Position numbers and translations under genes: made by a program. From contig CAXXVD010000002.1 in NCBI GenBank assembly GCA_963662335.2, positions 736,001-800,000 of the forward strand: a stretch of 64,000 nucleotides of DNA, in the 5' to 3' direction. Under the pieces are notes generated by a model. That model saw nothing but the letters and a program-made list of their open reading frames with translations. It was not told the origin of the DNA and made no database searches. The stretch comes from Chloroflexota bacterium. GTDB lineage: Bacteria > Chloroflexota > UBA11872 > VXOZ01. Below, one piece after another: positions 30,349-59,595 of the stretch. Every line of letters starts with the position of its first letter. The first letter of the stretch is position 1.

Positions 30349-30388
30349 GCGTTTGCAGGCGATTAAGTTTGCAGTCTTGGCTAGGAGG

Positions 30389-43243: not shown

Positions 43244-44212
43244 ATGAAAACTACCGCGCACGCCATCGAACCGCTTACGCCCGTGCCTGAGCACGTGCTC
43301 GGCGTCCGCGAAGAGCTAAACCTGCTCACGTACGGCCCCAGCGAGATTCTGCTTGCCACGGCCGGCGGCGAGATTGCCGGCGCGGTGCGCCTGGCGCTGC
43401 GGGAGGACCCGCGCCGCCGCCACGGCCTCATCGCCGACCTGGCCGCGCACGAGGACTACGACCGCAAGGCGATTGCCGCAGACCTCATCGCCGCCGCCGA
43501 GGAGCGCCTGAAGGCGCGGGGCGTGACCAAGATCGACGCGATCGTGCGCGATGGCGAGGGCGCCACCGTGCCTTTCTACGAGCGCGGCTACTGGGCCGCC
43601 CGCAAGATGGTGCTGCTGACGTGGGACCTCGGCGGACTCGAAGCGCTTGAGTCGAGCGACGAATTTTCGATTGAAGAGCACGCCGCGCCCGACCCGGCGT
43701 TCCTCACGGACTTCGCGCTCGAAAGCTACCAACCCTACTGGCGCTGGTGGAAAGAGTATAAAGAGGACACGCGCTGGCACCGGGTGGAATACCCGGCTGA
43801 GCCGGAAGCGCCGCCGAGCGCGGAACTCGCCCAGGAGATGCGTGACCGCGTGGCGGCGCGTGTTGCTGCGTTCGGCGGGGCCGCGCCGCAGACGCTTTTT
43901 ACCGCGCGGCTGGACGGCGAGGTAGTGGCTCTCTGCGACGCCAAAGCCGCGGCGGACGACGTCACGTTCGATTGGGGCCTCCTCGTGCGCCGGGACTATG
44001 GCGGACGCCGCATCGGCTCGGCCCTGCTCGGGCACGCGCTCCACTGGCTCAAGGCGCGGGGCCTGGAGACCGCGCGCATCGTCACCACCTCCGGCCTGGA
44101 CGACTATGATCCGACGGTCTATCTCTACGCCGCCGCCCACGGCGGCGCGATTAGGGCAGAATACCTGAACCTGGTGAAGAGACGGCTGCACAGCGGCAGC
44201 AGGCCGGGGTGA
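43244..44212 (+). CDS. Tandem GNAT-family N-acetyltransferase
   Basis: Two acetyl-CoA-binding-like motifs (DYDRKAIAADL...FYERGY and DYGGRRIGSALL...LY). Confidence 0.75.
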   Translation: MKTTAHAIEPLTPVPEHVLGVREELNLLTYGPSEILLATAGGEIAGAVRLALREDPRRRHGLIADLAAHEDYDRKAIAADLIAAAEERLKARGVTKIDAIVRDGEGATVPFYERGYWAARKMVLLTWDLGGLEALESSDEFSIEEHAAPDPAFLTDFALESYQPYWRWWKEYKEDTRWHRVEYPAEPEAPPSAELAQEMRDRVAARVAAFGGAAPQTLFTARLDGEVVALCDAKAAADDVTFDWGLLVRRDYGGRRIGSALLGHALHWLKARGLETARIVTTSGLDDYDPTVYLYAAAHGGAIRAEYLNLVKRRLHSGSRPG

Positions 44213-44258
44213 GCGCTGCGGCTACGCGGCAAACACCGTTTCGGCCTTCATCGAAAAC

Positions 44259-44286
44259 TTGACGGGTGTGGCGAAGCGTGTACACT
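44259..44286 (+). promoter_or_regulatory. Putative promoter of the peptide ABC operon
   Basis: TTGACG-16 bp-TACACT. Confidence 0.5.
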
Positions 44287-44395
44287 AAGGGCGTGACGCG
44301 CGTTGCCGCGGCGGTTCTCACGCTGAGGGATCAGCGGCAAGGCGCAAGGCAGGGGTGTTGCGGGAAGAATTTAGTCAGGAGAAGGAGGAGTTGCG

Positions 44396-46375: not shown

Positions 46376-46594
46376 CAACGGCGAGAATCCGCAAAGGCGT
46401 TTGACGCCCGTTGAGGAATCTGACGCCTGCGCAGAATCTGACCCGCTGCGATTGCGCGGTTTACGACGGGTAGGGGCACGACGTGTCGTGCCCCTACCCG
46501 TTTAAGGCTGTGGCGCGTCGGTTTGACTACGGCGCCGCAACCGTCAATAATGGGGCGCAATACATATCCACGCGCTTGACCGGGGAATTGGCGG

Positions 46595-47743
46595 ATGGCT
46601 GCCTATCTAATTAGCAGAACCCTGCAGATACTATTGACGCTCTTCGCGTTCATCTGCATCGTCTTCTTCCTCGTCAACGCGCAGCCGGGCGACATCAGCA
46701 ACGTCTACGCCATGAACCCCGAGTTGCCGCCGGATGCCCGCGAGCGGCTGCAAAACCAGTTTGGGCTCAACCAGCCGTTGTGGCAGCAATTCCTGGTGTA
46801 CGTCAAGAACATCCTCACCGGCAGTCTGGGCGTCTCGTTCACCCACTATCCCCGCAGCGTCATGGACGTGATTGCCGAGCGCCTGCCGCGCACGGTGGCG
46901 CTCTTCATGACGGCCACGATCTTCTCCTTCTACCTGGGTTTCCTGCTGGGCAAGATCATCGCCTGGAAGCGCGGCGGCTGGACCGAATACGCCACCACCC
47001 TGGGCGGCGTGACGCTCTACACGGTCTTTACGCCCTGGTTCGCCCTGATGATGATCTGGCTCTTCGCCTTCAAGGCCGGCTGGTTCCCCATCGGCAAGTT
47101 TCTGGACCCGGTCTTGTGGCGGGACGCGCCGCTGGCGGCGAACACGTTGTTTGGCCGCATGATGCTGACGGCGTTGGCGCTCTCCATCGTCGTCTTCGCC
47201 GTCTTTCTGGTCACCACGCGGCGGCGCATGGCCGGCGCGCGCTTCATTCAACTCGGCAGCCTCATCGCCGCCGTCGGCGTGATGCTCGGCGCGTGGTGGC
47301 TGACCGGTGTCGGCCATTTGGCCTGGGACATCGTGAAGCACATGATCTTGCCCGTGTTCACGCTCACCCTCATCAGCTTTGCCGGCACCATGCTGCTCAC
47401 GCGCAACAGCATGTTGGAGACCATGCGCGAGGACTTCGTGCTGGCGGCCCGCGCCAAGGGCCTGCCGGATAAAGCCGTGCGCGACCGGCACGTGGCGCGC
47501 AACGCCCTGCTGCCGGTGGTCACCAGCCTGGTTTTCAGCCTGGCGTTCGCCGTGGACGGCGGCGTGATTATCGAATCGGTATTCTCCTGGCCCGGCATGG
47601 GGCAGACGCTGGTGGCGGCGGCGATTTCGGAAGACCTGCCGCTGGCGGTGGGCGCGTTCGTCTTCGTCGGCATCTTCGTCCTGCTGGCCCACCTGGCCGT
47701 GGACGTGCTCTACGTCTACCTTGACCCAAGGATTCGCTACTAA
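46595..47743 (+). CDS. Opp/Dpp ABC permease (OppB-like)
   Basis: FGLNQPLWQQF, ERLPRT, EDFVLAARAKGL, RHVARNALLP, ESVFSWPGMG. Confidence 0.92.
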   Translation: MAAYLISRTLQILLTLFAFICIVFFLVNAQPGDISNVYAMNPELPPDARERLQNQFGLNQPLWQQFLVYVKNILTGSLGVSFTHYPRSVMDVIAERLPRTVALFMTATIFSFYLGFLLGKIIAWKRGGWTEYATTLGGVTLYTVFTPWFALMMIWLFAFKAGWFPIGKFLDPVLWRDAPLAANTLFGRMMLTALALSIVVFAVFLVTTRRRMAGARFIQLGSLIAAVGVMLGAWWLTGVGHLAWDIVKHMILPVFTLTLISFAGTMLLTRNSMLETMREDFVLAARAKGLPDKAVRDRHVARNALLPVVTSLVFSLAFAVDGGVIIESVFSWPGMGQTLVAAAISEDLPLAVGAFVFVGIFVLLAHLAVDVLYVYLDPRIRY

Positions 47744-48693
47744 TGGCCGTGGAAGCAACACCGCAACCGGCCGCGCCGTCGCTGCGCAAAGTGCGGCTCG
47801 GCCTGGCGGCGCGCAGCCTGCGCGAAAACTGGTCGCTCTTCGTCAGCACGCGCATCGGGCTGATCGGGTTGACCGTGATCCTCTTCTATATGTTGCTCGC
47901 GCTGGCGCATCCCATTCTGATGAACACCGTGTGGGACGAGCGCATCTACGACCCGGTGGTGGGCTACGCCTTCGATGAGACCCGCCAACCGGCGCCGCCC
48001 AGCCGCAGCCACCTGCTGGGCACGGACCCCCTGGGCCGTGACATCCTGAGCCAACTGATGTACAGCACCCGCACGGAATTCCTGCTGGGGCTGCTGGCCG
48101 CCATCGTCACCGTCGTGATCGGCACCACCGTCGGCGCGATCGCCGCCTACTACGGCGGTGTGATCGATACCCTCCTGATGCGCTTTGCAGACATCATGGT
48201 GATGATGCCGGGCATCAGCATCCTCATCGTCTTGAGCGCGCTGATTGGCGTGGAACACCTGGAGTTGGCGCTCATCATCGGCATCTTATCGGGTTTTGGC
48301 GGCGCGAGCATTCTCTTGAAGTCACAGGCGCTTTCCGTGGTTGTCAAGCCGTATATCGAAGCGGCACGCGCGGCCGGCGGCGGCCCGGCGCACATCATCT
48401 TCATCCACATCGTGCCCAACCTGCTGCCGCTTTCGTTCCTCTACATGATGTTCACCGTCACCGGCGCGATCTTCTCGGAAGCGGTCTTGAGTTTTCTCGG
48501 CCTGCTGGACGTGCGCATGAGTTGGGGCCTGATGATCCACACCACCGAGGCCGCCGGCTACCTGCTGCAAGTCGGCGCGTACTGGTGGCTCATCTTCCCG
48601 GCCAGCCTCTCCATTACGCTGCTCTGCTCCTCGTTCTACCTGGTGGGGCGCGCCATGGATGAGGTGATCAACCCCAGATTGCGGCGCTTATGA
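47743..48693 (+). CDS. Opp/Dpp ABC permease (OppC-like)
   Basis: HLLGTDPLGRDI, YIEAARAAG, HIVPN, EAVLSFLGL, NPRLR. Confidence 0.92.
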   Translation: MAVEATPQPAAPSLRKVRLGLAARSLRENWSLFVSTRIGLIGLTVILFYMLLALAHPILMNTVWDERIYDPVVGYAFDETRQPAPPSRSHLLGTDPLGRDILSQLMYSTRTEFLLGLLAAIVTVVIGTTVGAIAAYYGGVIDTLLMRFADIMVMMPGISILIVLSALIGVEHLELALIIGILSGFGGASILLKSQALSVVVKPYIEAARAAGGGPAHIIFIHIVPNLLPLSFLYMMFTVTGAIFSEAVLSFLGLLDVRMSWGLMIHTTEAAGYLLQVGAYWWLIFPASLSITLLCSSFYLVGRAMDEVINPRLRRL

Positions 48694-49655
48694 GCGGCGC
48701 TCCCCTGCTGGCCGTGGAAGACCTCACCCTGCACTACAACACGCGGGCCGGTGAAGTCTGCGCCGTGGACGGCGTTTCGCTCGCGCTGCACCGGGGCCAG
48801 TCGCTGGGACTGGTGGGGGAATCCGGCTGCGGCAAGTCGTCCCTGGCGCTGGCGCTGCTGCGGCTGCAGCCGGATAACGCGCGCATACTCGGCGGCAAGA
48901 TCCTGTTGGACGGCATAGACCTGGTCGCGCTTTCCGAGGATAAGATGCGTTCCTACCGCTGGGACCGTATCGCCATGGTCTTCCAATCGGCCATGAACGC
49001 CTTGGACCCGGTGTACCGCGTGGGCGACCAGATCATCGAGGCGCTGGAGGAGCACGTCAATGCGTCGCGGCCGGAAATGATCGAGCGCGTGCACGCGCTC
49101 TACGACCTGGTGAACCTTTCGCACAACTTCATTCCGCGCTATCCCCACGAGTACAGTGGCGGCATGAAGCAGCGCGCCATCATCGCCATGGCCCTGGCCT
49201 GCGAACCGGACCTCATCATCGCCGACGAGCCCACCACGGCCCTGGACGTGATCGTGCAAGACCACATTCTGCGCGAATTGCAGAATATCCGCGCGGAATT
49301 GAACATGAGCATGCTCTACATTTCGCACGACATGGCGGTGATTGCCGAGGTGAGCGACGTGGTGGCGGTGATGTACGCCGGCAAGATCGTGGAATACGGC
49401 ACGGCGGAAGAAGTCTTTGCCCGGCCCATTCACCCCTACACCCGCGCGTTGATGTCGGCCTTTCCCAGCGTGACCGGCGAGAAGCAGGAACTGGCGACCC
49501 TGGGCGGCGAGCCGCCAAACCCGCTGGAATTGCCGTCCGGCTGCCGCTTCCATCCGCGCTGCCCGCACGCGACCGAGAAGTGCGCCGAGCAGGAACCGCC
49601 CACCGTGCGCCGCGGCGCGCACTGGGCCGACTGCTGGCACCCACCGGAGGACTAG
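48690..49655 (+). CDS. Opp/Dpp ABC ATP-binding protein (OppD-like)
   Basis: GESGCGKS, YPHEYSGGMKQR, ADEPTTALD, HPYT, GCRFHPRC. Confidence 0.93.
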   Translation: MSGAPLLAVEDLTLHYNTRAGEVCAVDGVSLALHRGQSLGLVGESGCGKSSLALALLRLQPDNARILGGKILLDGIDLVALSEDKMRSYRWDRIAMVFQSAMNALDPVYRVGDQIIEALEEHVNASRPEMIERVHALYDLVNLSHNFIPRYPHEYSGGMKQRAIIAMALACEPDLIIADEPTTALDVIVQDHILRELQNIRAELNMSMLYISHDMAVIAEVSDVVAVMYAGKIVEYGTAEEVFARPIHPYTRALMSAFPSVTGEKQELATLGGEPPNPLELPSGCRFHPRCPHATEKCAEQEPPTVRRGAHWADCWHPPED

Positions 49656-49682
49656 AACCGATTTCAGATAACTCCGTTTAGA

Positions 49683-49720
49683 CCCCCTCTCCCTGAGGGA
49701 GAGGGCCGGGGCGAGGGTGA
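49683..49720. repeat. CCCCTCTCCC...GGGAGAGGG..GGGTGAGGG-type REP inside the ABC operon (family also at 11086-11120 and split around 23865-24025)
   Basis: CCCCTCTCCCTGAGGGAGAGGGCCGGGGCGAGGGTGA. Confidence 0.75.
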
Positions 49721-49759
49721 AGACGTAGAGCAAGTTTGCGTTGAAGAGGAATAGCGCCG

Positions 49760-50779
49760 ATGACCGATTCGGCAAACACAACAGCCGCCGAAGACCGCCC
49801 CCTGCTGCGGGTAGAGGGCTTGCGCAAGCATTTTCCCGCCGCCACCTCCCGCTTCCGGCGCAACCGGCGCTTCATCCACGCCGTGGACGACGTCAACTTC
49901 ACCCTGGGCCGGGGCGAAAGCCTGGGATTGGTGGGCGAATCCGGCTGCGGCAAGACCACGACCGGCAAGATGCTCGTGCGGCTAATAGACCCCACTGAAG
50001 GCCGCGTGCTCTTCGACGACGGCGCCGGCGAGCCGACGGACATCGCCACCCTGCGCGGCAAGCCCCTGAAGGAATTCCGGCGGCGCGCGCAGATGATCTT
50101 CCAAGACCCGTACGAGTCCATGAACCCCCGGCGCACGATCTACGACACCATCGCCGAGCCGCTCCAGGTGCAGCAGATCGGCACGCTGGTGGAGCGCATC
50201 GACCGCGTGACGGAAATGCTGGCGCTGGTGGGCCTGACGCCGCCGCGCGCCTTCCTCTTCCGCTACCCCCACGAACTCTCCGGCGGCCAGCGGCAGCGCG
50301 TGGCGATCGCGCGGGCGCTGGTGGTGGAGCCGTCGTTTGTGGTGGCCGACGAACCGACCTCCATGTTGGACGTCTCCGTGCGCACCGGCGTGATGCGGCT
50401 GATGGCGGACCTGGCCGAGGGCCTGGGCATCGGCTATCTCTACATCACCCACGACCTGGCGGTGGCGCGCTACATGTGCACCCGCATCGCGGTGATGTAT
50501 CTCGGCAAGATCGTGGAAATCGGCGATACGGAGGAAATCCTGCGCCGCCCGCAACACCCCTATACCCAGGCCCTGCTGTCCGCGGTGCCCGTCCCCGACC
50601 CCACCGTCACCCGCGCCCCGGTCAACATCAAAGGCGGCGTCACGACCCTCATCAACCCCCCGCCCCAATGCCGCTTCTACCCCCGCTGCCCCCAAGCCGA
50701 CAACTTCTGCCGCGACAACGACCACCCACCCCTGGAACGCAAAGGCCAGGAGCAAGAAGTGGCTTGCTACAAGGCGTAG
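49760..50779 (+). CDS. Opp/Dpp ABC ATP-binding protein (OppF-like)
   Basis: GESGCGKTT, FQDPY, YPHELSGGQRQR, ADEPTSMLD, CRFYPRC. Confidence 0.93.
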   Translation: MTDSANTTAAEDRPLLRVEGLRKHFPAATSRFRRNRRFIHAVDDVNFTLGRGESLGLVGESGCGKTTTGKMLVRLIDPTEGRVLFDDGAGEPTDIATLRGKPLKEFRRRAQMIFQDPYESMNPRRTIYDTIAEPLQVQQIGTLVERIDRVTEMLALVGLTPPRAFLFRYPHELSGGQRQRVAIARALVVEPSFVVADEPTSMLDVSVRTGVMRLMADLAEGLGIGYLYITHDLAVARYMCTRIAVMYLGKIVEIGDTEEILRRPQHPYTQALLSAVPVPDPTVTRAPVNIKGGVTTLINPPPQCRFYPRCPQADNFCRDNDHPPLERKGQEQEVACYKA

Positions 50780-50928
50780 CCAGCGGCGCAGTTGTTCAGC
50801 GACACTTTCGTTGCTAAAGTATGATGAGCGGGTCGAATGCACTCGCAGAAAGACATTACGTCATCGGATCGACTACAGCAACGAGAGCACTGGCATGAGA
50901 CGAGCGATCCAATGAACAAAGCACTTCT

Positions 50929-51798
50929 ATGCTAACGAAAACCGGAACTGTGACCTACCGTGCTCTCAGCCTGGGTGCAGGCGTGCAGAGTTCTGTGTTG
51001 GCACTTCTTCTGTCCCGATCCGACCCCGGCTTGCTCGAACTTGGCTACCCCAAACCAAATGTCGCCGTGTTTGCCGACACTGGTTGGGAACCAGAGTATG
51101 TTTACCGCCACCTTGACTGGCTTGAAGAGCAACTTGACTATCCGCTAATCCGCGTATCTGATGGCGACATAAAGACAAACCTGAAGCAGGGGCGCACGGT
51201 TTCGGGACACCGGTTTGTGGATGTACCGTTGTTTATGGTGAACCCGGATGGTAAGAAAGGCATGTTGCGGCGGCAGTGTACAAGCCATTATAAGGTTAGA
51301 CCCATCTATCGTGAGATTAGACAGCTTGCAGGTGGACAACGCGGGCGGCCATTCCCAAAAGACACGTACGCTGAAATGTGGCTTGGGATATCTCGGGACG
51401 AGGTGGCGCGTATCAAGCCCAGCCGAGAACCATGGGTTGAACACCGCTGGCCGCTTGTGGAACTTGGTATGTCGCGCCAGGACTGCCTAGAGTGGTTCGC
51501 TTCTGAATACCCGGGCCGTCACCTTCCCCGGTCAGCTTGCGTCATTTGTCCCTATCGCTCGGATGAACACTGGCTGGAACTAAAGCGGTCTGAGCCTGAC
51601 AGTTACAACGAGGCCGTGAAGTTCGATGTATGGCTGCGAAATAGCGCAACGAACCCCGTGAGGGAGATCCTCAACGGCCGTCCGTACCTTCATGCTGCGC
51701 GCCGACCTCTTGCTAGCGTCATCGCTGAACGGGAATCTGATGATTCAGACGCGAACGACTACTTTGTCGAGGAGTGCGAGGGCGTCTGCGGTGTATGA
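50929..51798 (+). CDS. PP-loop / PAPS-reductase-like (adenine nucleotide alpha hydrolase) protein with conserved-looking cysteines
   Basis: SLGAGVQSS PP-loop variant, FADTGWE, RQCT..YK..PI, GISRDE..R, WPLVE, PRSACVICPY, C-terminal CEGVCGV. Confidence 0.75.
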   Translation: MLTKTGTVTYRALSLGAGVQSSVLALLLSRSDPGLLELGYPKPNVAVFADTGWEPEYVYRHLDWLEEQLDYPLIRVSDGDIKTNLKQGRTVSGHRFVDVPLFMVNPDGKKGMLRRQCTSHYKVRPIYREIRQLAGGQRGRPFPKDTYAEMWLGISRDEVARIKPSREPWVEHRWPLVELGMSRQDCLEWFASEYPGRHLPRSACVICPYRSDEHWLELKRSEPDSYNEAVKFDVWLRNSATNPVREILNGRPYLHAARRPLASVIAERESDDSDANDYFVEECEGVCGV

Positions 51799-53053
51799 GG
51801 CGCACACGGAGACGGTTAGCCCCAAGTATTCGCTTCATCCGTACCAGCGGCAGGTGCTGACTGACATCTTGCAGGCCCTGTCATCGCCTGAGCGTCGGGT
51901 CGTTGCGCACTTGCCAACCGGCGCTGGCAAGACGAGAATTGCCGCCCATGCTGCGTGCCGGCTGCTCAACGAGAATGACAACTACGACAAGCGAAGTGAG
52001 GAGCCCCTTGTAATCTGGTCGGCGTCTACAGAGGAGCTTTGCGAACAGGCGGCAGACCAACTTTCAGAGGCGTGGTCGTATCTGGGTTTGCGGGATGCTT
52101 CCATTCACCGCTATTGGGGCAACCGGTCGCTAGACCTGCGGCGACTGTCTTCTGGGTTCTTGGTAACCGGTCTTGCTAAACTGCATTCCGTTGCGTCCCG
52201 AGATAACACACTACTTGCGCACCTGGCCCATTGTACGGCAGGTGTGATCTTTGACGAGGCCCACCAGGCAGTTGCCGAGACCTACGCTTTTGTCACTGAG
52301 CAGCTATGCAGCACGCGGCCGCCTCTCCTCGGCTTGACCGCAACACCGGGGCGCACCGCGAACCTTACGGATGCTGACCATCAGCTTGCCGCTATGTTCG
52401 ATTACAAGAAAGTGTCAATAGACCCTAGAGGACATGAGAGCGCCGTTGCCTACCTCATTCAGAATCGCTACCTGGCTGACACGCGCTTTGTGCCGGTGGA
52501 CTTTGACTCTGATTTTGCAGTCGCAGACCCTCGCCCCGGCCTGGACTATAGTCGGCATGACCTAGCTGAACTGGGCCGCGACGAGCGCCGGACACGTGTG
52601 ATCGCTGAACACGCTATGGGTGCCGTTAGACGGCATCAGCGCACTATTGTGTTCTGCCCCTCGGTGGAGAGCGCACATATGTGCAACCGGCTTCTCTTGG
52701 CTGAGGGCATGGCTACTCACGTGATTACTGCGAAAACGTCCAGCGAGGAACGCCAGGACATCATAGCCACTTTCAAGAGCGACAGTAGGGAGCACATGGT
52801 GTTGTTCAACTACGGCGTGCTTACCGCCGGTTTCGACGCTCCGCGAACTCGTTGTGTCATTATCGCTCGCCCTACCACTTCATTGGTGCTCTATTCGCAA
52901 ATGGCGGGGCGCGCAATGCGCGGCCCTAGAGCCGGCGGCAACCCAAGAGCCGAAATACTCACTGTTGTCGACACGAACCTTCCAGGGTTCGGGTCAGTGA
53001 CCGAGGCGTTCACAAACTGGGAGGAACTATGGAAGACCAACTCGCCGAACTAA
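51791..53053 (+). CDS. SF2 DEAH-box helicase (ResIII/Helicase_C type)
   Basis: LHPYQ, LPTGAGKT, FDEAHQ, GLTATPGR, VFCPSV, VLTAGFDAP, QMAGRAMR; start placed at GTG 51791, overlapping the upstream stop. Confidence 0.9.
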   Translation: MYEAHTETVSPKYSLHPYQRQVLTDILQALSSPERRVVAHLPTGAGKTRIAAHAACRLLNENDNYDKRSEEPLVIWSASTEELCEQAADQLSEAWSYLGLRDASIHRYWGNRSLDLRRLSSGFLVTGLAKLHSVASRDNTLLAHLAHCTAGVIFDEAHQAVAETYAFVTEQLCSTRPPLLGLTATPGRTANLTDADHQLAAMFDYKKVSIDPRGHESAVAYLIQNRYLADTRFVPVDFDSDFAVADPRPGLDYSRHDLAELGRDERRTRVIAEHAMGAVRRHQRTIVFCPSVESAHMCNRLLLAEGMATHVITAKTSSEERQDIIATFKSDSREHMVLFNYGVLTAGFDAPRTRCVIIARPTTSLVLYSQMAGRAMRGPRAGGNPRAEILTVVDTNLPGFGSVTEAFTNWEELWKTNSPN

Positions 53054-54891
53054 GAGATGCAGACCGCAGCCTGTTTCCAGGTAGTTTTACAATACGCGCC
53101 ATTAGGGACAGCCGATACCATAGTACCGCATATGCAATTGCCGAGCTTATTGACAACTCAGTCGAAGCAGGGGCGCCTTTAGTCGAACTCTTGTGCATGG
53201 AAGATTCTCAGTTGGCGGAGGTGCGGACTCGGCGACGAGTATCCGAAATTGCAGTCCTAGATAACGGTGAAGGCATGAGCGCAAGAACGTTACTCGACGC
53301 CCTCAAGTTTGGTGGAGGCACTCGGCACGACTCTAATACGGGAATCGGCAAGTACGGCATGGGACTTCCTACTTCTTCAATGTCTCAATGCAAGAAAGTG
53401 GATGTTTGGACTTGGCAGAACGGACTGGATTCTGCATTGCATTCTAGCATTGACGCCGACGAGATTGAGAAAGGAAACCACGAGGTACCTATTCCTAACC
53501 GAGATACTCCAATTCCCGATACATGGAGAAGCGCCGGCAGCGATGAGATATATCGCAGCCGCTCAGGGACCCTTGTCGTATGGAGTAATCTGGACAAGAT
53601 TCAGTGGAAGACTTCTAAGGCAATTATCGAGAACTTGTCCAGGGAGGTTGGGCGCATCCATCGGCATTACATCAATCAAGAAATACATAGGATTCAGGCT
53701 GCATCATTCCTAAAGGATCGGGCTAGCGAACTCAAAAACAGAATACGGATTGTGGCAAACGATCCTCTCTACTTGATGACGCCTTCATCTACTCCAGAGG
53801 GGTGGGATACCAAGGCGATGTTTCGGGAGTGGGGTCCCACTAAAGACTATACGGTCTGGGTGGATGACCGGGAAGCGGTTATTCAGGTGAAATACTCGAT
53901 TGTGAAAGCCGAAGCTTTGAAGACTGATAGTATTTCGCAGCTTCCTGGCAACACTGAACGTGGCAGGCATGCAAGACATAACATTGGCGTGTCGGTCGTG
54001 CGCGAGGATAGAGAGCTAGTGCTTGAAGACGCGTTTCTGAGAGAGGGTGGCAGCACTGAGAACCCGCAAAATCGTTGGTGGGGGTGTGAAGTTCTTTTCT
54101 TTCGCAATTGTGATGAGCTGTTTGGCGTAGACCACAATAAACAGATGGTTGCAAACTTCACGCAAGCGGCAAAGGCTCTCGCTCGAGATGACCGCCCTCA
54201 ACATCGCATACTTGAAGAGATCGGGATCGACGAAAATGACCCGCTATATGCATTGGTGGGTGACATTCGGAACCAGACACGTGCCATGATGCGTGAAATC
54301 GGACAGATGTTTACACAGCGACGAGGGACCCAAGGACCGCGCGGTCGCAGGGGAAGTCCCGAAAAAAAGGCCGCAAGGACGGCTACCGATGCAGACCGAG
54401 ATGCTATGGCTAGCGGTGAAGAAAAGCCGACCGAGACTGACAGAGAACGAATGCAAAAGCCGGCCAATCAGCGAGAAGATGGTCTCAAGGCACAGTTCAT
54501 CTCGTATGGTCAGGCAGAGCAAGATGCCCAGGATCTCGCAAGGATGCTGGTACAGGAGGATCTCTCGTACCAGTTCACCTCAAGAAACCTTCCCGGTTAC
54601 CAGATTTTCAATGTGGAACGAAAGGAGGGTGTCCTTCTAATCGAACTCAATACTGACCATCCAGTCTACGACTTGCTGAGGCATGTTGAAGGTCGACTCG
54701 ACGAGGAAGGTGACGAGAGCGATCCTGCATTCCAATCAATCGTCGCTATCAGACTCTTGTTGTCTTCTTGGGCCCGGATGGAAGACCAGACCGAGTCCGA
54801 TCCCGATCGAAGACACATTCAACACATTGCAATGGATTGGGGACGTCAGGTAGACAAGTTCATTAGTCAACTCCGTGAAAGAGATGGTTAG
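53029..54891 (+). CDS. MORC-type GHKL (HATPase_c_3) ATPase
   Basis: AIAELIDNS, DNGEGM, GIGKYGMGL..SS.S, GTLVVW; S5-like GVSVVREDREL; C-terminal IELNTDHPVY. Confidence 0.85.
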   Translation: MEDQLAELRDADRSLFPGSFTIRAIRDSRYHSTAYAIAELIDNSVEAGAPLVELLCMEDSQLAEVRTRRRVSEIAVLDNGEGMSARTLLDALKFGGGTRHDSNTGIGKYGMGLPTSSMSQCKKVDVWTWQNGLDSALHSSIDADEIEKGNHEVPIPNRDTPIPDTWRSAGSDEIYRSRSGTLVVWSNLDKIQWKTSKAIIENLSREVGRIHRHYINQEIHRIQAASFLKDRASELKNRIRIVANDPLYLMTPSSTPEGWDTKAMFREWGPTKDYTVWVDDREAVIQVKYSIVKAEALKTDSISQLPGNTERGRHARHNIGVSVVREDRELVLEDAFLREGGSTENPQNRWWGCEVLFFRNCDELFGVDHNKQMVANFTQAAKALARDDRPQHRILEEIGIDENDPLYALVGDIRNQTRAMMREIGQMFTQRRGTQGPRGRRGSPEKKAARTATDADRDAMASGEEKPTETDRERMQKPANQREDGLKAQFISYGQAEQDAQDLARMLVQEDLSYQFTSRNLPGYQIFNVERKEGVLLIELNTDHPVYDLLRHVEGRLDEEGDESDPAFQSIVAIRLLLSSWARMEDQTESDPDRRHIQHIAMDWGRQVDKFISQLRERDG

Positions 54892-54893
54892 TC

Positions 54894-55748
54894 GTGTCGT
54901 ATACCCACGGCGACTTGCTGGGAAGCCTTTGTGCCGGCGCGCAGCGCTTGATCATTGCAGCACCTTACATCAAGACTTATGCACTTGCTAGACTATTGGC
55001 AGAACTTGACCCACTGGCAACCCTAATTTGCGTTACGCGGTGGAACCCACACGACCTTGCCGTCGGTGCTTCCGATGCAGACTGTCGCGCTATAGTCTTG
55101 CGGCGGGGTGGATCCTTCAGACTGCATCCCTCCCTGCACGCCAAGTACTACCGTATTGATGACGTGGTTCTCATTGGCTCCGCGAATCTCACGGCTTCTG
55201 CATTAGGCTGGTCCGCACAACCAAACTTGGAGATTCTTTGCCGTGCCGTTGACAACTTTGACGCAAGCGCATTCCAGCAAGAATTGATGGACGGCTCGCG
55301 AGAGATTACTGACGAAGAATTCGCGTATTGGGAGTCGATTTCAAAGATCACGGCCCCAACTAACCAGCCAATTGCTGGCGGTCAGCCTGTGCTTGAAACG
55401 TGGAGACCTTCAACACGCGACCCGAGAAACGTAGAACTTGCCTATCAAGGCAGAGAAGACGACATAGCCTCACTTGATGAACAGAGTGCGGCGCAAAGGG
55501 ACATCCAAGCCCTTTTGATACCGCCGGGTCTGAACGATGAGCAGGTTCGTGCATGGGCATCGGGCTGCTTGCTCGCCGCCCCTTTTGCCAACTCCGTGAT
55601 GCGGCTGCATGGTATAGATACGCCAACCGCCTCCCGCATACTCGCCGAGAACTATAGCATCAACATTACCGAGGCGAGAAGAGACATGGAAACCGTGCAG
55701 AACTGGCTGGCGTTTCTCGCCCCGGAGGCCACCTCAAAGCTCCCTTGA
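54894..55748 (+). CDS. Phospholipase-D-family (single HKD) nuclease-like protein
   Basis: IAAPYI, LHAKYYRIDD (HxKxxxxD), IGSANLT, NLE; unrecognised helical C-terminal half. Confidence 0.82.
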   Translation: MSYTHGDLLGSLCAGAQRLIIAAPYIKTYALARLLAELDPLATLICVTRWNPHDLAVGASDADCRAIVLRRGGSFRLHPSLHAKYYRIDDVVLIGSANLTASALGWSAQPNLEILCRAVDNFDASAFQQELMDGSREITDEEFAYWESISKITAPTNQPIAGGQPVLETWRPSTRDPRNVELAYQGREDDIASLDEQSAAQRDIQALLIPPGLNDEQVRAWASGCLLAAPFANSVMRLHGIDTPTASRILAENYSINITEARRDMETVQNWLAFLAPEATSKLP

Positions 55749-55794
55749 GATGCGGTGAGCTTGTCTCTTACGCACCCAACAAGCTATTCCACTG

Positions 55795-56940
55795 TCAAAT
55801 GTCCATCACCGCCCCCGTATCGTCCCGCAGGTTCTTGAAGTAGGAAAAACTGCGCGGCGGGTTGGCGGCGATGACTTCCTCGTTCAGGTCTACGCCCAGG
55901 CCGGGCGAGTCGGGGACGTGGAGGTAGCCGTTCTGAATGGGCCAGGGCTGTTTCAGCACCCGGTCGCGGTAGGGTTGGCTGGGCACGTATTCCAACAGGT
56001 GGAAGTTGGGGACGCTCATGCCGATGTGGGCCGCGGCGGCGGTGGAGACCGGCCCCATGGGGTTGTGGGGCGCTACGAGCACGTGATGCACCTCGGCGAG
56101 CGCCGCGATCTTCTTCACCTCGGTAATGCCGCCGGCGTGGCAGAGGTCCGGCTGGATCACGTCCACGTACTGGCCCGCCAGCAGGGGCGCGAACTGCCAC
56201 TTGGTGAAGTAGCGTTCGCCGGTGGCCAGGTCGATGCCCAGTTCGCGGGCAGTCTCGGTCACAGGCCGAAAGGCTTCGATATTGTCCGGCGGCACCGGCT
56301 CCTCGAAGAACGTGATGCGGCTATCCCGCACGGCGTGCAGTTGGCGCACGGCCTGGGCCGGACGGCTCTTGCCGTGGTTGTCGAGCATGATGTCCACGTC
56401 CCGCCCGACGGCCTGGCGCAGGATGGCGATGCGTTCCCCCAAGAGCGCGGCGGCCTGATGGTCGCCCATGGGCGCGTCGGTAGCCCACGCGCCGGTCTTG
56501 AGCGCGGTGAAACCGGCGCCCACGAGTTGCGCCGCTTCCCGCGCGATGCGGTCGGCTTCGTAGATGCCGACGTGGGTGTAGAGGCGAATGCGGTCGCGGG
56601 CGGGCCCGCCGAGCAGATGGTAGACCGGCGCGCCGTAATGCTTGCCCTTGATGTCCCACAAGGCCTGGTCGATGCCCGCAATGGCGGTGCTGATGACCAC
56701 GCCGCCCTTCCAGAAGCCGTCCCGGTAGAGCGACTGCCAGAGACGCTCGGTCTCCAACGGGTCCTTGCCAATGAGCGCCTCGCCAAGCTGCCCAACCGCC
56801 GCCCGCACCGTGGCGTCCTTGCCTTCCAAGGTGGCCTCGCCCCAGCCGTAAAGCTCCGGCTCGTCGGTGGAAATCTTGACAAACACCCAATTGCGCGGGT
56901 CGCCCCACATGATGAAGGTGTCTACTGCGGTGATGCGCAC
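55795..56940 (-). CDS. dgoD: Galactonate dehydratase-like mandelate racemase/enolase-superfamily enzyme
   Basis: GWGEATLEG, AGIDQALWDIKGK, LDNHG, FFEEP, ATGER, QPDLCHAGG, APHNPMGP, PGLGVD; substrate not certain. Confidence 0.75.
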   Translation of the reverse strand: MRITAVDTFIMWGDPRNWVFVKISTDEPELYGWGEATLEGKDATVRAAVGQLGEALIGKDPLETERLWQSLYRDGFWKGGVVISTAIAGIDQALWDIKGKHYGAPVYHLLGGPARDRIRLYTHVGIYEADRIAREAAQLVGAGFTALKTGAWATDAPMGDHQAAALLGERIAILRQAVGRDVDIMLDNHGKSRPAQAVRQLHAVRDSRITFFEEPVPPDNIEAFRPVTETARELGIDLATGERYFTKWQFAPLLAGQYVDVIQPDLCHAGGITEVKKIAALAEVHHVLVAPHNPMGPVSTAAAAHIGMSVPNFHLLEYVPSQPYRDRVLKQPWPIQNGYLHVPDSPGLGVDLNEEVIAANPPRSFSYFKNLRDDTGAVMDI

Positions 56941-57030: not shown

Positions 57031-59283
57031 TTACTTGAATCGCTGGCCGATGTATTCTAAGGCCATCTTGAGCGGTAGTTCAGTTGTAGAAGGGCCGGTA
57101 CGAACGTAGAACCGTTCGTCGTTGCCATCCGTTACGTAAACAGGGGCCCGGGATGCCTCGCAGCGAACGACCAAGACACGCCCCCCTTCGAAGTCGTCAA
57201 AATTGGCGTGCATGAACGCCCAGACACTCGCTCCCATTCTCTCATTCACGATGTTGACCAGATGCAGACCCATGCGGTCCTCATTTGAAAAGCCGTCATC
57301 CTTCAAGCCAAGAGGCGAGCCGTCGTCAGCGACGCCAATGAGCAGCGTGCCGCCGCTCTTGTTTAGGAACCCGGCTAAAGTCTTGAGCGCCGACAGTTCA
57401 ATTCGGCTATCCCGCTTGCCTGTGTGGAGATTGACGCGGAGCGTCGACTTGAATTCGACTAAGTCGGATTCCCCGCCTGCTATCAGACTCTCCAGGTCGA
57501 TTGCATCAGTCTCGTCCTCAACGCCTATCGGTGTTGCAAGTTGCTGATACCCTTCTCGCATTATTTGCGCGATCAACTCCCGGCGTTTTCCTAAGAAAGC
57601 CCAATAATCCATGCTTTCCCAGCCGTCGGGCAGCCCATGGCGCACGTACATGTGTGCTAACGCCTCTTCGCAGAATCGTTCCCGCATAGGCGGCAGGTAC
57701 TCCTGCGGGGATTGAGCGGACATCCTTGCGTTATCCGTCCACTCCACGTAAGCATAATTGGCAATCTGATTGACGTCTCTTGTCGCTGTTATGCCGTTTT
57801 GCGCCAGATGGCCCCTTGGAAACAGATGGTGTCGCTCTATACTTCTGTGGCCGCCCCGCCAAGCAGGATCCAGCATTTCCGATATAGAAAATTCGGAGAA
57901 GAGAACTGGAGCATCCAGCAGGACCAGTGAAGCTTCGAACGCAAAGAGCGATGGACTGCGGGCAGAAGAGGTCGCGAGTTCACTTGGCAGCGTCACTTCC
58001 CAGAAGTCAGTGGTAAGTGTCACGTTGCATGTTTGATGAAGCTTGGCTGCGAACTCGTCAGCCGACTTAACTCCCCGCAACATTGCCAGATCGGACTCCA
58101 TCCGAGACTCCGGTGAGCCTGTGTAGCGGCCGGTCACGGCGGACATGAAGAACCACTGGGCGATGACCTGCCGGAGCGCGTGTTCTTCCATGCCAAGTTC
58201 TGTTTTACCAATCAAGTAAAGGATGTACGAATAGAGTAGCGCGGTCTGAGAGCTTATCATTCGGCGCGAACGGTAGCCGGCCCTTCTCAGACAGTGCATG
58301 AAGTCGTGCCAGTTCTGCAGGTTCAGCACTTTCGATTGGGCGTCTCTCAGCCGCTCGAACTGGTCGTCCCGCCGCTCTTCGCTGAACTCTCCAGATTCCA
58401 AGTCCTTCCCGCGCAATATCGAGTACACGTGTTCCAGCCTGGCTCGTTTGAATGCCAGCCCTACCCCCACACGAAGCATCTGATCAGGAGAGGGTTCAAT
58501 GAAGTGATTGTGCGGCGACGGCTCGCCGGTTGTTGGCGTACGGGCCTCTCTGCAGAAGCGTTCTAACTCAGTTCTCCCCTCATCCCAAAAGACTGACATA
58601 AGCGTGAGGATAAAGTCCGCCTGGTTGAGCGTCTTGCCCTGGCTATTGATCCTGACAAAGACTTCCGCAACCGCTTCCTCCGACGTTTCAGCGGATAGTT
58701 GGAGTGCGGTGAAGGGAAACCCGACCAGGCCTTGGAGCTTCGTGATGGCCGCTCGGATCGACCTGACCTCTTGGCTGGACAGTTCCCGCGCGGAGCGAAG
58801 CCCACTGAGATAGTCGTCTGCAACCTGGAACAGATCGGTCTCGTCGCTCCATAGCCGTGAAATGTCCGGGATGAATGACCTGTCGCGTTCAATCGCAGCG
58901 CTGGTCACCTCGAACACCTCTTCCATGGGGTTGAAGGCGATGCGGATGCGCTCGCTTCGGTAATTACTGCGAACGACGGTGGCTCCTTTGATTACGGCGA
59001 AGAGTGAGGTCAATCTCTGCTGACCATCGACGATGACCAAGCTAGGCGCGAGTTGTTTGGCATCCGAACCGATTGCCCTGTGCCCGGAGAGCAGCCCGTT
59101 TTGCCAGAAGAGCAGATACCCCACCGGATATCCCCGGTACATGGAGTCGAATAAGTCGCGGACTTTCGTGTTAGGCCAGACGAACGGCCGCTGAATGTCC
59201 GGCAGCCCAATCTGTCCCATGTCGATGTCATTGACGAGCTTCTCTAATGGAAATGTCACTTGTGCGAAGGCCGTCTTGCTCAT
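57031..59283 (-). CDS. GmrSD-like DUF262 + HNH(DUF1524-like) protein fused to a C-terminal Schlafen/AlbA_2 domain
   Basis: PDIQRPFVW, VDGQQRLTSL, FVRINSQG (DUF262); ERHHLFPR...NQIANY...DN (HNH-like); GESDLVEFKSTLR...AGFLNKSGGTLLIGVADDG...FYVRTGPST (AlbA_2); start at ATG 59283. Confidence 0.85.
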   Translation of the reverse strand: MSKTAFAQVTFPLEKLVNDIDMGQIGLPDIQRPFVWPNTKVRDLFDSMYRGYPVGYLLFWQNGLLSGHRAIGSDAKQLAPSLVIVDGQQRLTSLFAVIKGATVVRSNYRSERIRIAFNPMEEVFEVTSAAIERDRSFIPDISRLWSDETDLFQVADDYLSGLRSARELSSQEVRSIRAAITKLQGLVGFPFTALQLSAETSEEAVAEVFVRINSQGKTLNQADFILTLMSVFWDEGRTELERFCREARTPTTGEPSPHNHFIEPSPDQMLRVGVGLAFKRARLEHVYSILRGKDLESGEFSEERRDDQFERLRDAQSKVLNLQNWHDFMHCLRRAGYRSRRMISSQTALLYSYILYLIGKTELGMEEHALRQVIAQWFFMSAVTGRYTGSPESRMESDLAMLRGVKSADEFAAKLHQTCNVTLTTDFWEVTLPSELATSSARSPSLFAFEASLVLLDAPVLFSEFSISEMLDPAWRGGHRSIERHHLFPRGHLAQNGITATRDVNQIANYAYVEWTDNARMSAQSPQEYLPPMRERFCEEALAHMYVRHGLPDGWESMDYWAFLGKRRELIAQIMREGYQQLATPIGVEDETDAIDLESLIAGGESDLVEFKSTLRVNLHTGKRDSRIELSALKTLAGFLNKSGGTLLIGVADDGSPLGLKDDGFSNEDRMGLHLVNIVNERMGASVWAFMHANFDDFEGGRVLVVRCEASRAPVYVTDGNDERFYVRTGPSTTELPLKMALEYIGQRFK

Positions 59284-59595
59284 TGCAATTGCTCTCCGTG
59301 GCTTGCAGGACAATGATAGTCAAGGAAGTCGCAAGCACGCATGGGCCTTTCACCCGCCAATCCAAGCACTTGATGCCTGCCCATTCTCGTGACCTTCCTG
59401 CTTGCTCAATCCTATGTACGGGTACTTTGGCAGTCCTGGGATCCACTCCGGGAACTGAAACCAAAGCGGCGTGCACCCCGCAGTGAAATCCAGGTACTAT
59501 TGCCACGCACACTCCAGACTACTCGCTTGCGCGCGGCCTGGTCTAGCAGCGTTGCGTGACCTTGCAAAGACTCATGTCGAGCGGCAATCGAACTC

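Follow-up and report, generated by a model that had tools for sequence, protein, structure and literature searches.

We suggest that four co-oriented genes in a 64,000-nt stretch of DNA (the window) probably form a mobile restriction-modification system of the phosphorothioate (PT) type, in which a helicase-GHKL-PLD trio would add to the restriction modules associated with Ssp, and a single small SspD-like enzyme, whose family is common among phages and plasmids, would stand in for SspABCD. The cassette resembles a stripped-down sulfur-based phage defence, because relatives of the trio elsewhere adjoin full sets of Ssp sulfur-marking genes. By ORF call, the block occupies positions 50929-55748 of the window, all on the forward strand and with overlapping open reading frames, among the following features:

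49760-50779, flanking the block: ABC ATPase gene (Pfam scan)
50929-51798, forward strand: g1, PAPS-reductase-like PP-loop protein, 289 aa
51791-53053 (420 aa, GTG start) or 51692-53053 (453 aa, ATG start), forward strand: g2, SF2 helicase
53029-54891, forward strand: g3, GHKL ATPase, 620 aa
54894-55748, forward strand: g4, PLD nuclease, 284 aa
55795-56961, reverse strand: MR_MLE enolase-type dehydratase (Pfam scan)
57031-59313, 1.3 kb from the cassette: defence-type GmrSD_N-Schlafen gene (Pfam and PADLOC)

An earlier, sequence-only reading of this DNA had described four tightly coupled, co-oriented genes between an ABC gene and a dehydratase, and both the neighbours and the coupling were recovered, including the 25-bp overlap of g2 and g3 and the 2-bp gap between g3 and g4. 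Its 8-bp overlap of g1 and g2 holds if GTG 51791 is the start of g2; homologues of g2 begin 8-32 nt ahead of the g1 stop (TGA, 51796-51798), but the start is unproven because ATG 51692 is equally open. The hand counts behind its claim of lower GC (30/60 and 46/60) were reproduced, and GC is 0.544 in the block vs. 0.65-0.66 in the flanks (0.648 at 44000-50779 and 0.664 in the dehydratase gene). The block had also been called REP-free, and the palindrome GCGGGGGACAAGCCCCCGC, with four copies in 30000-64000, has none inside it, although this is weak support, as only about 0.6 copies are expected per 4.8 kb. Likewise, the reported absence of a methyltransferase stands: none of the four proteins contains FxGxG, [DNS]PP[YFW], PC[QA] or ENV motifs or a methyltransferase Pfam domain, and a single PADLOC MTase_II match, on g3, is at chance level (E 0.0099). 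The GmrSD_N gene, which matches the SspE model at E ~1e-3 only (PADLOC), is an insertion separate from the cassette.

The cassette is accessory and horizontally mobile, and has spread over at least six bacterial phyla. It is found in 18 other genomes, and the four genes keep an identical order in 13/13 loci from six phyla (one contig stops within g3), with no further flanking gene conserved among the 13; the co-occurrence of g1 with the other three genes, central to the earlier claim of a single system, is therefore borne out. Within the same genus, one genome (G003) carries the cassette between the same two flanking genes, and in another (G001) a PQQ beta-propeller gene takes its place, which marks the block as a true insertion. 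G082 has the cassette too, parts of it were seen in G020, G032 and G040, g1 is present in 9 of 41 relatives, and the integration site is variable. In a tree of the GHKL proteins, the g1-linked rows form one group (100/100) with phyla mixed, indicating that the shared gene order reflects one evolutionary event rather than many independent ones; this clade is nested within the Ssp-linked trios only under a midpoint root.

The product of g1 carries a PP-loop (SLGAGVQS), a CVIC motif and a C-terminal CEGVC. It matches phrog_424 'PAPS reductase' at E 1.3e-42 and Pfam PAPS_reduct at E 1e-3 (19.6 bits, under the 22.5 cut-off), and the sole PADLOC family that it matches is SspD (E 1.5e-12, 45.8 bits, vs. 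364-384 bits for bona fide SspDs). When the g1 family was compared with six SspD by hhalign (99.3%, E 1.2e-20, 210 columns), the PP-loop, R-x-C-T and S-x-C-x-x-C lined up, five cysteine positions were common, and both families were seen to possess a terminal di-Cys motif (CEGxCGV in g1, CxxC in SspD). Invariant across 49 g1-family members are G16, G18, Q20, S21, D50, E54, R115, C117, E158, R161, C204, C207, C283, G285 and C287; going by the five invariant cysteines only, the earlier label 'Fe-S-like' may apply. The AF2 model (pLDDT 92.6) has its best fold matches among PAPS/APS reductases (CysH, Met16, APS reductases; Z 10.7-11.8), and the nearest solved folds also include tRNA thiolases and no DNA enzymes, while the g1 profile retrieved no solved structure except a weak match to 21fy_C 'PptA'. 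The C-terminal Cys motif of PAPS/APS reductases is ECG(L/I)H, which CEGxCGV recalls yet differs from, and the gene context of g1, unlike that of the CysH family, is not sulfate assimilation. By these alignments, the homology of g1 to SspD is distant but clear, spans the entire catalytic domain, cysteines included, and leaves g1 outside the SspD family proper; it is a predicted writer of DNA PT or a related mark. It is the only SspD-model match in its own genome (96% complete), in which the DndC model PDLC02662 and the SspC model PDLC02781 had 0 matches (the SspC control matched in 1/14 genomes), SspB was not matched in a genome-wide search whose control matched nowhere, and three cysteine desulfurase genes are present.

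The second product has Pfam ResIII (1.8e-18) and Helicase_C (6.5e-16) domains with GAGKT, DEAH and TAT motifs. RadD is its best match both in NCBIfam (E 3.8e-31, 108 bits, far under the cut-off of 720) and among PDB sequences (1.7e-18, with the SauUSI helicase at 1.5e-7), and it also matches the PADLOC Type IV REase (mREase_IV) models (5.7e-12), TIGR04095 dnd_restrict_1 (34 bits, cut-off 600) and, over the helicase core only, PbeA (E 7e-20, profile positions 237-421 of 672). Its sequence thus places g2 as an SF2 helicase or translocase of ResIII/RadD/SauUSI-like type. In g3, HATPase_c_3 (3e-21, residues 33-150) and the Bergerat-fold motifs ELIDNSVE (N-box), DNGEG and GKYGMG predict a GHKL ATPase of MORC/paraMORC/MutL type with a long uncharacterised C-terminal part. 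The earlier 'MORC' label was right as to the GHKL ATPase, but no Morc6_S5 domain was detected in g3 by Pfam at E <= 0.01; in the Atlas, it neighbours HATPase_c_3 'ATP-binding protein' clusters only, in one of which 20% of members have Morc6_S5, and no PDB sequence matched.

Residues 1-150 of g4 are a predicted single-HKD PLD-family nuclease domain. Pfam PLDc_2 is matched at its cut-off of 27 bits (4.6e-6), 17 homologues all keep the HKD residues H82, K84, D89, G95, S96 and N98, and the D-to-G spacing is 5, whereas the canonical one is 6. The folds nearest to the PLD domain of the AF2 model (pLDDT 91.7) are those of the restriction enzymes SauUSI (nuclease domain, Z 15.7, rmsd 2.3, 140 aligned), BfiI (13.0) and NgoAVII, and of Nuc (12.8). 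The helical C-terminal domain (166-284), with weak fold matches only (BrxA Z 5.5, SspB 6juf Z 4.8, FokI Z 4.6), is possibly a tandem-HTH DNA binder in this model.

A pointer to sulfur-based marking also comes from relatives of the trio. A full-length g3 homologue is present in 10 genomes from two samples of 401 genomes each; four of these have g1 (G000, G003, G082 and G418), and in the other six (G064, G292, G468, G431, G487 and G763) SspB/C/D, PADLOC-confirmed or blast-matched, adjoin the g3 homologue, accompanied in five of the six by helicase and PLD genes. A second query recovered the same five genomes. In 7/7 plasmid records examined (Pannonibacter, Agrobacterium, Trichormus, Aminobacter, Roseobacter, Planktothrix and Mesorhizobium), genes for a helicase, an 'ATP-binding protein' and a PLD or hypothetical protein lie within 10 kb of those for DUF4007, a ~1100-aa ATP-binding protein and a PAPS reductase. 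All 13 g3 relatives examined that lack g1 have a canonical SspB-SspC-SspD cluster no more than 10 kb away, usually accompanied by a cysteine desulfurase, with a helicase gene in 12/13. The earlier reading had placed the PP-loop enzyme in the modification slot, with sulfur chemistry, and the helicase, GHKL and PLD proteins in a restriction arm; the SspD homology and the 13/13 linkage speak for this arrangement, of which the function itself stays a prediction.

In the mechanism that we favor, g1, probably an Fe-S enzyme, would activate a DNA backbone phosphate with ATP and then insert sulfur supplied by a housekeeping cysteine desulfurase, thereby labelling the host's own DNA. The g2 translocase, the g3 GHKL ATPase as a clamp and the g4 PLD nuclease with its possible DNA-binding tail would make up the restriction arm, presumably as one complex, which would scan DNA and nick or cleave that without the proper mark, much as a SauUSI-type enzyme might if divided into separate proteins and supplemented with a MutL-like ATPase, and would so act against phages. 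The trio would then be the module attached elsewhere to a full SspABCD writer, with SspA-D reduced here to the single g1. In Ssp and Dnd, however, the PAPS-reductase protein depends on two partners, an NTPase (SspC or DndD) and a protein that recognises DNA. The absence of both beside g1 speaks against the PT reading, unless g2 or g3 substitute for them, and an excerpt of PMC12914056 describes isolates that had a PAPS reductase, lacked a dndD-type partner and were without PT. Also against it count the scores of g1, far short of bona fide SspDs and under the Pfam cut-off, and the single-clade origin of the g1-linked cassettes. The wider g1 family stands alone in phages and plasmids, and a g1-type domain is fused to DUF6339 in PDC-M33; therefore the chemistry of g1 could differ from PT. 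More tentatively, and at less than even chances, a single 289-aa SspD-like enzyme without the SspB nickase and SspC ATPase might suffice to write PT or a related backbone mark read by a hitherto undescribed helicase-GHKL-PLD complex, which would join DndFGH/SspFGH, SspE and Pbe as another restriction branch of PT immunity, and the thousands of stand-alone g1-family genes in phages and plasmid leading regions might be 'orphan PT writers' that disguise mobile-element DNA from PT-based defences.

The linkage to SspBCD does not discriminate between attack on unmarked DNA and SspE-like stimulation by PT. Thus g1 might write PT on host DNA while the trio is activated by PT and then damages invading DNA, rather than being blocked by the mark as a classical enzyme. 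SspE, the best-studied Ssp partner, acts by PT sensing (PMC8092258, in part), and an SspE-like gene lies alongside the GHKL gene or the trio at two loci (L058 and L069) and on Trichormus plasmid A, a coexistence that suggests compatible layers on one mark. We nevertheless consider PT sensing by the trio rather unlikely, as no PT-binding domain is recognisable in g2-g4, SspE-type DUF262 is absent from them, and SauUSI and BfiI, the solved proteins to which g2 and g4 are most closely related, are restriction nucleases of the ordinary sort.

It is improbable that g1 modifies no DNA and instead has another substrate (nucleotide, tRNA, small molecule or the C-terminus of a partner protein) or is a regulator, leaving the trio to restrict modified phage DNA by itself, as a Type IV-like (SauUSI-like) system. 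The reductase and thiolase folds nearest to g1 and the metabolic 'PAPS reductase' annotation of its phage homologues would fit such a role, as would the match of g2 to Type IV REase models, and SauUSI is a modification-dependent enzyme. However, SspD is the nearest characterised sequence family and its Cys motifs agree with those of g1, the adjacency of 13/13 trio relatives to complete PT writers would be hard to explain for a modification-dependent enzyme, and the phage and plasmid homologues have genes for replication and anti-restriction (ArdC, primase, SSB) as neighbours rather than those of sulfur metabolism. That the block is not for defence, but a mobile repair or recombination module (RadD-like helicase, MutL-like ATPase and nuclease) with an unrelated passenger gene, is barely credible, since against RadD as the best match of g2 and the fact that GHKL, nuclease and helicase also follow the logic of mismatch repair (PMC2292703, in part) stand the RadD score far below cut-off, the patchy distribution and horizontal transfer of the cassette, the constant linkage to SspBCD, SspE-like, SspFGH-like and AbiE genes, and the second, GmrSD_N-Schlafen defence-type gene nearby.

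PT-based immunity currently has three described restriction branches, namely DndFGH/SspFGH, SspE and Pbe. As given in an excerpt of PMC8092258, 83.9% of 2,678 sspBCD clusters are without a known partner; a PT-type reading of this locus would point to one such missing partner, the helicase-GHKL-PLD trio, and to a minimal cassette in which one small protein is swapped in for the whole SspABCD writer. Should g1 need no partner, it would be a portable enzyme of compact size for marking the DNA backbone, and a function would be suggested for the 'PAPS reductase' proteins of phages and plasmids, a very large family at present classed with auxiliary metabolism. The cassette would also be a clear case of a single predicted defence cassette crossing at least six bacterial phyla. 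Even on named plasmids, among them those of Agrobacterium, Roseobacter and Trichormus, the trio genes have generic annotations.

No name for the four-gene system was found in PADLOC, NCBIfam or the literature searched, and profile scans placed the trio in none of SspE, SspFGH, Pbe, Dnd, DISARM and Mza. Dnd was rejected, since g1 has no DndC match at E <= 0.01 and the cassette has no DndD-H matches, as was BREX type 4, for which no BrxP, PglZ, BrxC or BrxL match was found among the four proteins. In BREX type 4 (BrxP) and Dnd (DndC), a PAPS-reductase-domain protein takes the methyltransferase's place (PMC12839542 and PMC12914056, each in part), and g1 likewise stands where a methyltransferase would, but PglZ, BrxC, BrxL, DndD and DndE are missing here. 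DISARM was rejected on a weak DrmC match of g4 (28.5 bits in PADLOC; 20.5 bits in NCBIfam, cut-off 133) with no DrmA/DrmB (DUF1998) matches and no methylase; Pbe (PbeABCD), because g2 is like the PbeA helicase core only and g3 and g4 match no Pbe model; and Mza (MzaABCDE), because g3 matches MzaB in its N-terminal GHKL part only (47 bits in PADLOC; 62.4 bits in NCBIfam, cut-off 850).

Other likenesses are partial. A precedent for a single PAPS-reductase-domain protein that suffices for PT synthesis is TdpC (PMC12914056, in part). TdpABC shares, by description, the concept of a one-gene PT writer. To our knowledge, its restriction partners TdpA and TdpB are not helicase, GHKL or PLD proteins. 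The g4 PLD domain and the g2 helicase resemble the PLD nuclease and SF2 helicase of SauUSI, which are joined in one chain there, whereas here they are separate proteins with a GHKL ATPase between them and a linked writer gene. Prokaryotic MORC/paraMORC operons also combine a GHKL ATPase, an SF2 helicase and a nuclease (HKD in few) and are laterally mobile (Iyer, Abhiman & Aravind 2008; PMC2292703), but they have DNA methylases, and in the available portion of that source PAPS reductase, phosphoadenosine, PP-loop and phosphorothioation go unmentioned; no methylase was detected in the cassette, and no MORC-specific S5 module in g3. The nearest relatives of g1 outside the cassette, in the same genus and at 48-49% identity, form the C-terminal half of PDC-M33C (DUF6339) fusions encoded with PDC-M33A and PDC-M33B, suggesting that a second candidate defence system has taken up the g1-type domain as a module, with other partners and without helicase, GHKL or PLD; PDC-M33 is an uncharacterised PADLOC candidate, and no literature on it or DUF6339 was found.

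The earlier reading had set the block apart from Dnd, Ssp, Pbe and DISARM alike, which profile scans uphold except for Ssp. The cassette fails canonical Ssp membership because it is without SspB, SspC, SspE and SspFGH: SspB (DUF4007) and SspC (~1100-aa ATPase, DUF6079) had no match among the four proteins (Pfam, PADLOC), and a linked SspA is lacking. The trio is not SspE, since DUF262 (SspE being DUF262-DUF1524) is absent from g2-g4 and no SspE match was found. Nor is it SspFGH, in which SspF is a Walker-A protein and SspH is FtsK-like by description (PMC8092258, in part), since the SspF model PDLC02793 and the SspF/G/H models were unmatched by g2-g4 and by their Ssp-linked relatives at one locus (L057). 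Nevertheless, g1 would be the counterpart of SspD, with homology that takes in the PP-loop as well as the R-x-C-T, CxxC and terminal di-Cys motifs, and the predicted logic of a writer with a restriction module is the same, so that by its sequences the cassette is best seen as a derivative or variant of Ssp.

We lean towards reading the four-gene cassette as a restriction-modification system of the DNA phosphorothioate (PT) type, in which a helicase, a GHKL ATPase and a PLD nuclease (the trio) would form a further Ssp-associated restriction module, and in which one SspD-like protein would have replaced SspABCD, the canonical PT writer set. The four genes are:

50929-51798, forward strand: g1, ORF of 289 aa, PAPS-reductase-like by profile scans
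51791 (GTG) or 51692 (ATG) to 53053, forward strand: g2, ORF of 420 or 453 aa, ResIII/Helicase_C SF2 helicase
53029-54891, forward strand: g3, ORF of 620 aa, HATPase_c_3 GHKL ATPase
54894-55748, forward strand: g4, ORF of 284 aa, PLDc_2

The co-orientation and tight coupling described in the sequence-only reading are confirmed by the ORF coordinates and junctions: the g1 stop TGA (51796-51798) gives an 8 bp overlap with the GTG at 51791, g2 shares 25 bp with g3, and 2 bp separate g3 from g4. Its two hand counts of GC were reproduced exactly, and the whole block has a GC of 0.544, vs. 0.648 upstream and 0.664 in the downstream dehydratase gene. The lack of a methyltransferase also held, with no motif in g1-g4 and no domain in profile scans. 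That the block is REP-free is true and carries little weight, as there are four REP-like palindromes in 34 kb, none inside the block. The palindrome, GCGGGGGACAAGCCCCCGCGCTACG, has intergenic copies at 30377, 41554, 42349, and 60702, and a 28-nt tandem unit is repeated about five times at 42484-42624. Promoter and terminator scans of 50700-55900 gave chance-level results (3 and 4 sites vs. 3.2 and 4.7 in shuffles), and no sequencing run (4 holders, 2 studies) was recorded as RNA.

The cassette is an inserted, mobile element. In G003, a genome of the same genus, the same four genes lie between the same ABC and MR_MLE genes (87/84/67/76% identity), while in G001, also of this genus, a PQQ beta-propeller gene occupies the site, and three more genomes have 29-122 kb between the ABC and MR_MLE genes. 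Of 41 relatives, 9 have a g1 match, as do 3 of the 16 other genomes within the genus. With one genome scanned per species, 13 cassette loci came up, in Latescibacterota, Chloroflexota (Dehalococcoidia, Caldilineaceae), Binatota, Acidobacteriota, Pseudomonadota, and Gemmatimonadota. The search for conserved synteny proposed earlier recovered the order g1-g2-g3(-g4) in all 13, at 46-80% identity, with one contig ending inside g3; clustering of every flanking ORF ≥ 100 aa gave no fifth conserved gene, and flanks were in common only between the two Latescibacterota loci. A full but more divergent cassette is present in G082 (68/58/49/49% identity), and G020, G032, and G040 show g1, g2 and the beginning of g3 within 1.5-kb flanks. 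In one Latescibacterota locus (L001, 6043-6397), fragment copies of g1 (residues 70-107, 71%) and g2 (residues 1-80, 76%) about 1.6 kb upstream of the intact cassette appear to be what is left of an earlier or second copy.

A second low-GC insertion lies nearby:

57031-59313, reverse strand: GmrSD_N-Schlafen gene, 760 aa, with GmrSD_N/DUF262 (4.4e-31) and a C-terminal Schlafen AlbA_2 domain (7e-16)

This gene (GC 0.557; best PADLOC match HEC-05, 3e-36) is missing from G001 and G003, where MR_MLE is directly followed by a GFO/IDH/MocA gene, and its position beside the cassette is not conserved in the 13 cassette loci. It is probably an independent Type IV-like defense gene.

Profile scans of g1 gave Pfam matches below cut-off, SspD in PADLOC (1.5e-12), and phrog_424 (1.3e-42). 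Of 6,984 candidates, 5,437 belong to its family at E ≤ 1e-3 (4,107 representatives of 50%-identity clusters). In this family, cassette-type g1 proteins are at least 67% identical to g1 of the window and everything else at most 58%. Invariant in a 49-sequence alignment are the PP-loop S-L-G-A-G-V-Q-S-S, D50, E54, R115-x-C117, E158, R161, C204-x-x-C207-P, W215, and the C-terminal C283-E-G-x-C287-G-V. Six PADLOC-confirmed SspDs, when aligned, have the same layout (SGGKDS, R-W-C-T, S-G-C-x-F-C, and a terminal CxxC), and hhalign matched the two alignments with 99.3% probability (E 1.2e-20, 210 columns). It follows from this shared layout and match that g1 is an SspD homolog with an equivalent cysteine set. 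However, it scores only 45.8 bits with the SspD model, vs. 364-384 bits for bona fide SspDs, and by sequence it appears to fall outside the SspD family proper. The AlphaFold model (pLDDT 92.6) has PAPS/APS reductases as its nearest folds (Z 10.7-11.8, with 164-187 residues aligned), and next come NcsA and TtuA, which are [4Fe-4S] tRNA thiolases (Z about 10); structure searches (Foldseek, fold comparison) returned generic PP-loop enzymes only, with no DndC, SspD or TdpC among the matches listed, which does not exclude these families. Among solved structures, PDB 21fy chain C ("PptA", 270 aa) is the best sequence relative of the g1 family (E 0.003) and of SspD (E 3.4e-10) alike, and no other chain has detectable sequence similarity to the two; the entry is more recent than the fold library searched, and we found no relevant paper on it.

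The helicase g2 carries GAGKT, DEAH and TAT motifs and best matches RadD, the SauUSI helicase, Type I R subunits, and XPB. For g3, the earlier label of MORC stands as far as a GHKL ATPase, with all three GHKL motifs and HATPase_c_3 present, but not as to MORC identity, since the S5 domain was not detected in the profile scan. No PDB sequence matched at E ≤ 0.01, and g3 is better described, from its motifs, as a MORC/paraMORC-like GHKL ATPase. The AlphaFold model of g4 (pLDDT 91.7) has an N-terminal single-HKD nuclease domain nearest to SauUSI (Z 15.7), BfiI (13.0), and Nuc (12.8), and a helical C-terminal domain with weak matches to the tandem-HTH DNA binders BrxA (5.5), SspB (4.8), and FokI (4.6); that this domain may be a tandem-HTH-like DNA binder is a lead rather than a finding. 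As a pair, g2 and g4 resemble a SauUSI-type enzyme divided over two proteins, with a MutL-like ATPase placed between the parts.

The relatives of g3 link the trio to PT writer genes. Among 401 genomes of the phylum of the window, nine matched g3 at E ≤ 1e-10, five of them full-length, and g1 is present in three of these five (G000, G003, and G082). In the fourth, G064, SspA-SspB-SspC-SspD (PADLOC E between 1e-111 and 0) come directly after helicase-GHKL-PLD and share their strand; in the fifth, G292, the order is SspB-SspC-SspD-SspE-GHKL, without helicase or PLD. A second sample, 401 genomes of the phylum of cassette locus L009, yielded five genomes with a full-length homolog, recovered again with the GHKL protein of G431 as query. 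One of them (G418) has g1, and in the other four (G468, G431, G487, and G763) the trio adjoins SspB/C/D plus SspA, joined by SspE in one of them. Weaker N-terminal or partial matches (G061, G095, G170, G363, G558, and G679) were not counted as family members; a blast of the G061, G095, G558 and G679 regions with Ssp proteins from loci L057 and L058 found SspA-D absent and a weak SspE-like match in G558 only.

On plasmids, 14 records matched, eight covering at least 80% of the query; contexts were examined for seven of these eight, leaving out H53 (same species as H54) and the six partial matches. All seven encode, in order, a "DEAD/DEAH box helicase" or helicase-like protein, an "ATP-binding protein", and a "phospholipase D family" or hypothetical protein; these product names are generic, and therefore the trio has no name in annotation pipelines. 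In all seven it lies within 10 kb of genes for DUF4007, an "ATP-binding protein" or "hypothetical protein" of about 1000-1170 aa, and a "PAPS reductase family protein", and in five a cysteine desulfurase gene is annotated nearby. Thus, all 13 examined g3 relatives without g1 (6 genomes, 7 plasmids) are linked to a canonical PT writer. On Agrobacterium tumefaciens pAtCFBP7129b, the trio is separated from the Ssp writer genes by an SspFGH-like set (two hypothetical proteins and an FtsK/SpoIIIE protein). The island (353848-375149; L080/L082) holds SspABCD, this set, and a helicase-GHKL-hypothetical trio, which suggests that one PT writer serves two stacked restriction modules. AbiEii and DUF3883 genes adjoin this island.

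The earlier proposal of a PP-loop modifier with a restriction arm is thus largely borne out by the homology of g1 to SspD and the position of the trio beside PT writers, although not as something apart from the PT/Ssp world. We infer each biochemical step, including whether the mark blocks or activates the trio. The PP-loop of g1 would use ATP to activate the backbone phosphate and its cysteine/Fe-S site would deliver sulfur, marking host DNA. The genome carries three cysteine desulfurases, one of which would be the sulfur source; genome-wide searches returned nothing for SspB (whose control was also negative), SspC or DndC, and g1 is its sole SspD-model match. Other single-HKD nucleases are dimers, and g4, probably also a dimer, would nick or cut DNA without the mark. 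The helicase g2 would translocate, and g3 may be an ATP-gated clamp coupling recognition to cutting, for which PMC2292703 offers an analogy in MutL with MutH and UvrD. A complex prediction for g2 with g1 from our own alignments (score 0.00, mark 0.32) gave "no answer" and is neutral as evidence.

A maximum-likelihood tree was built from 21 GHKL proteins. Its 15 g1-linked rows cluster as one group (100/100) in which phyla are mixed (Gemmatimonadota with Chloroflexota, Binatota with Latescibacterota). Under midpoint rooting, the six Ssp-linked rows form two deep groups flanking it, with long branches flagged. The pattern is consistent with one replacement of SspABCD by g1 and then rapid horizontal spread; the direction hinges on where the tree is rooted. 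Helicases linked to Ssp have 545-557 aa, vs. about 412-423 aa for g1-linked ones where the start is constrained; those of L057 and L068-L071, all Ssp-linked loci, have an N-terminal extension of about 130 aa that is missing from g1-linked helicases.

Outside the cassette, the g1 family occurs at 30-43% identity in 47 phage records, including Pelagibacter, Thermus P23-77, Geobacillus, and Mycobacterium abscessus prophages, and in 188 plasmid records (109 from Agrobacterium). The analysis covered three of these contexts, one of them amid replication genes in a Geobacillus phage. On Mesorhizobium sp. L-2-11 plasmid MesoLjLa5 (L044, 5503-6822), which is phage-like, a g1-type domain (42% identity) makes up the C-terminal two thirds of a 439-aa "DNA cytosine methyltransferase" CDS, with a sigma-like HTH gene on one side and P4-type primase genes on the other. 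On the Agrobacterium fabrum C58 Ti plasmid (L045, 5956-6870), a family member annotated as hypothetical (39% identity) starts at the ardC stop; ParB-N, zeta toxin and HEPN genes are also in this region. We infer that such positions are typical of orphan DNA-modifying or anti-restriction genes. Two genomes of the genus of the window encode PDC-M33 (A, B, C; L022, 9718-14043, reverse strand, and L023, 634-6828, forward strand), whose PDC-M33C (DUF6339) carries a fused PAPS-reductase domain of the g1 type, 48-49% identical to g1; we found no literature on "DUF6339" or "PDC-M33". In L023, a full GmrSD (N and C domains) directly follows.

Among named systems, SspFGH, in PMC8092258 a Walker-A protein, a second protein, and one with an FtsK-like C-terminus, was rejected as the trio, as neither g2-g4 nor their Ssp-linked relatives matched an SspF, SspG or SspH model (PADLOC includes an SspF model); DndF/G/H and PbeB-D models did not match them either. 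Dnd, BREX-4, DISARM, Pbe, and Mza were rejected on profile scores. The sequence-only reading had not recognized the cassette as Dnd, Ssp, Pbe or DISARM; of these, Ssp is the one to which it is related, through the g1-SspD homology and the linkage of the trio to SspBCD. Our literature search, outside which lay supplements and most subscription journals, found nothing joining SspBCD to a helicase/GHKL/PLD set, and an earlier description is possible. Helicase, HATPase, phospholipase and GHKL are unmentioned in PMC12914056 and PMC8569181, as are "PAPS" and "PP-loop" in the available text of the 2008 MORC paper (PMC2292703) and in the 2017 polyvalent-protein paper. Three PT restriction branches, dndFGH/sspFGH, sspE, and pbeABCD, are given in a 2025 review (PMC12707154), and in PMC8092258 83.9% of 2,678 sspBCD clusters are without a known partner and further partners are suggested. 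Two points are of interest here: a probable further Ssp-associated restriction module and a putative one-protein writer.
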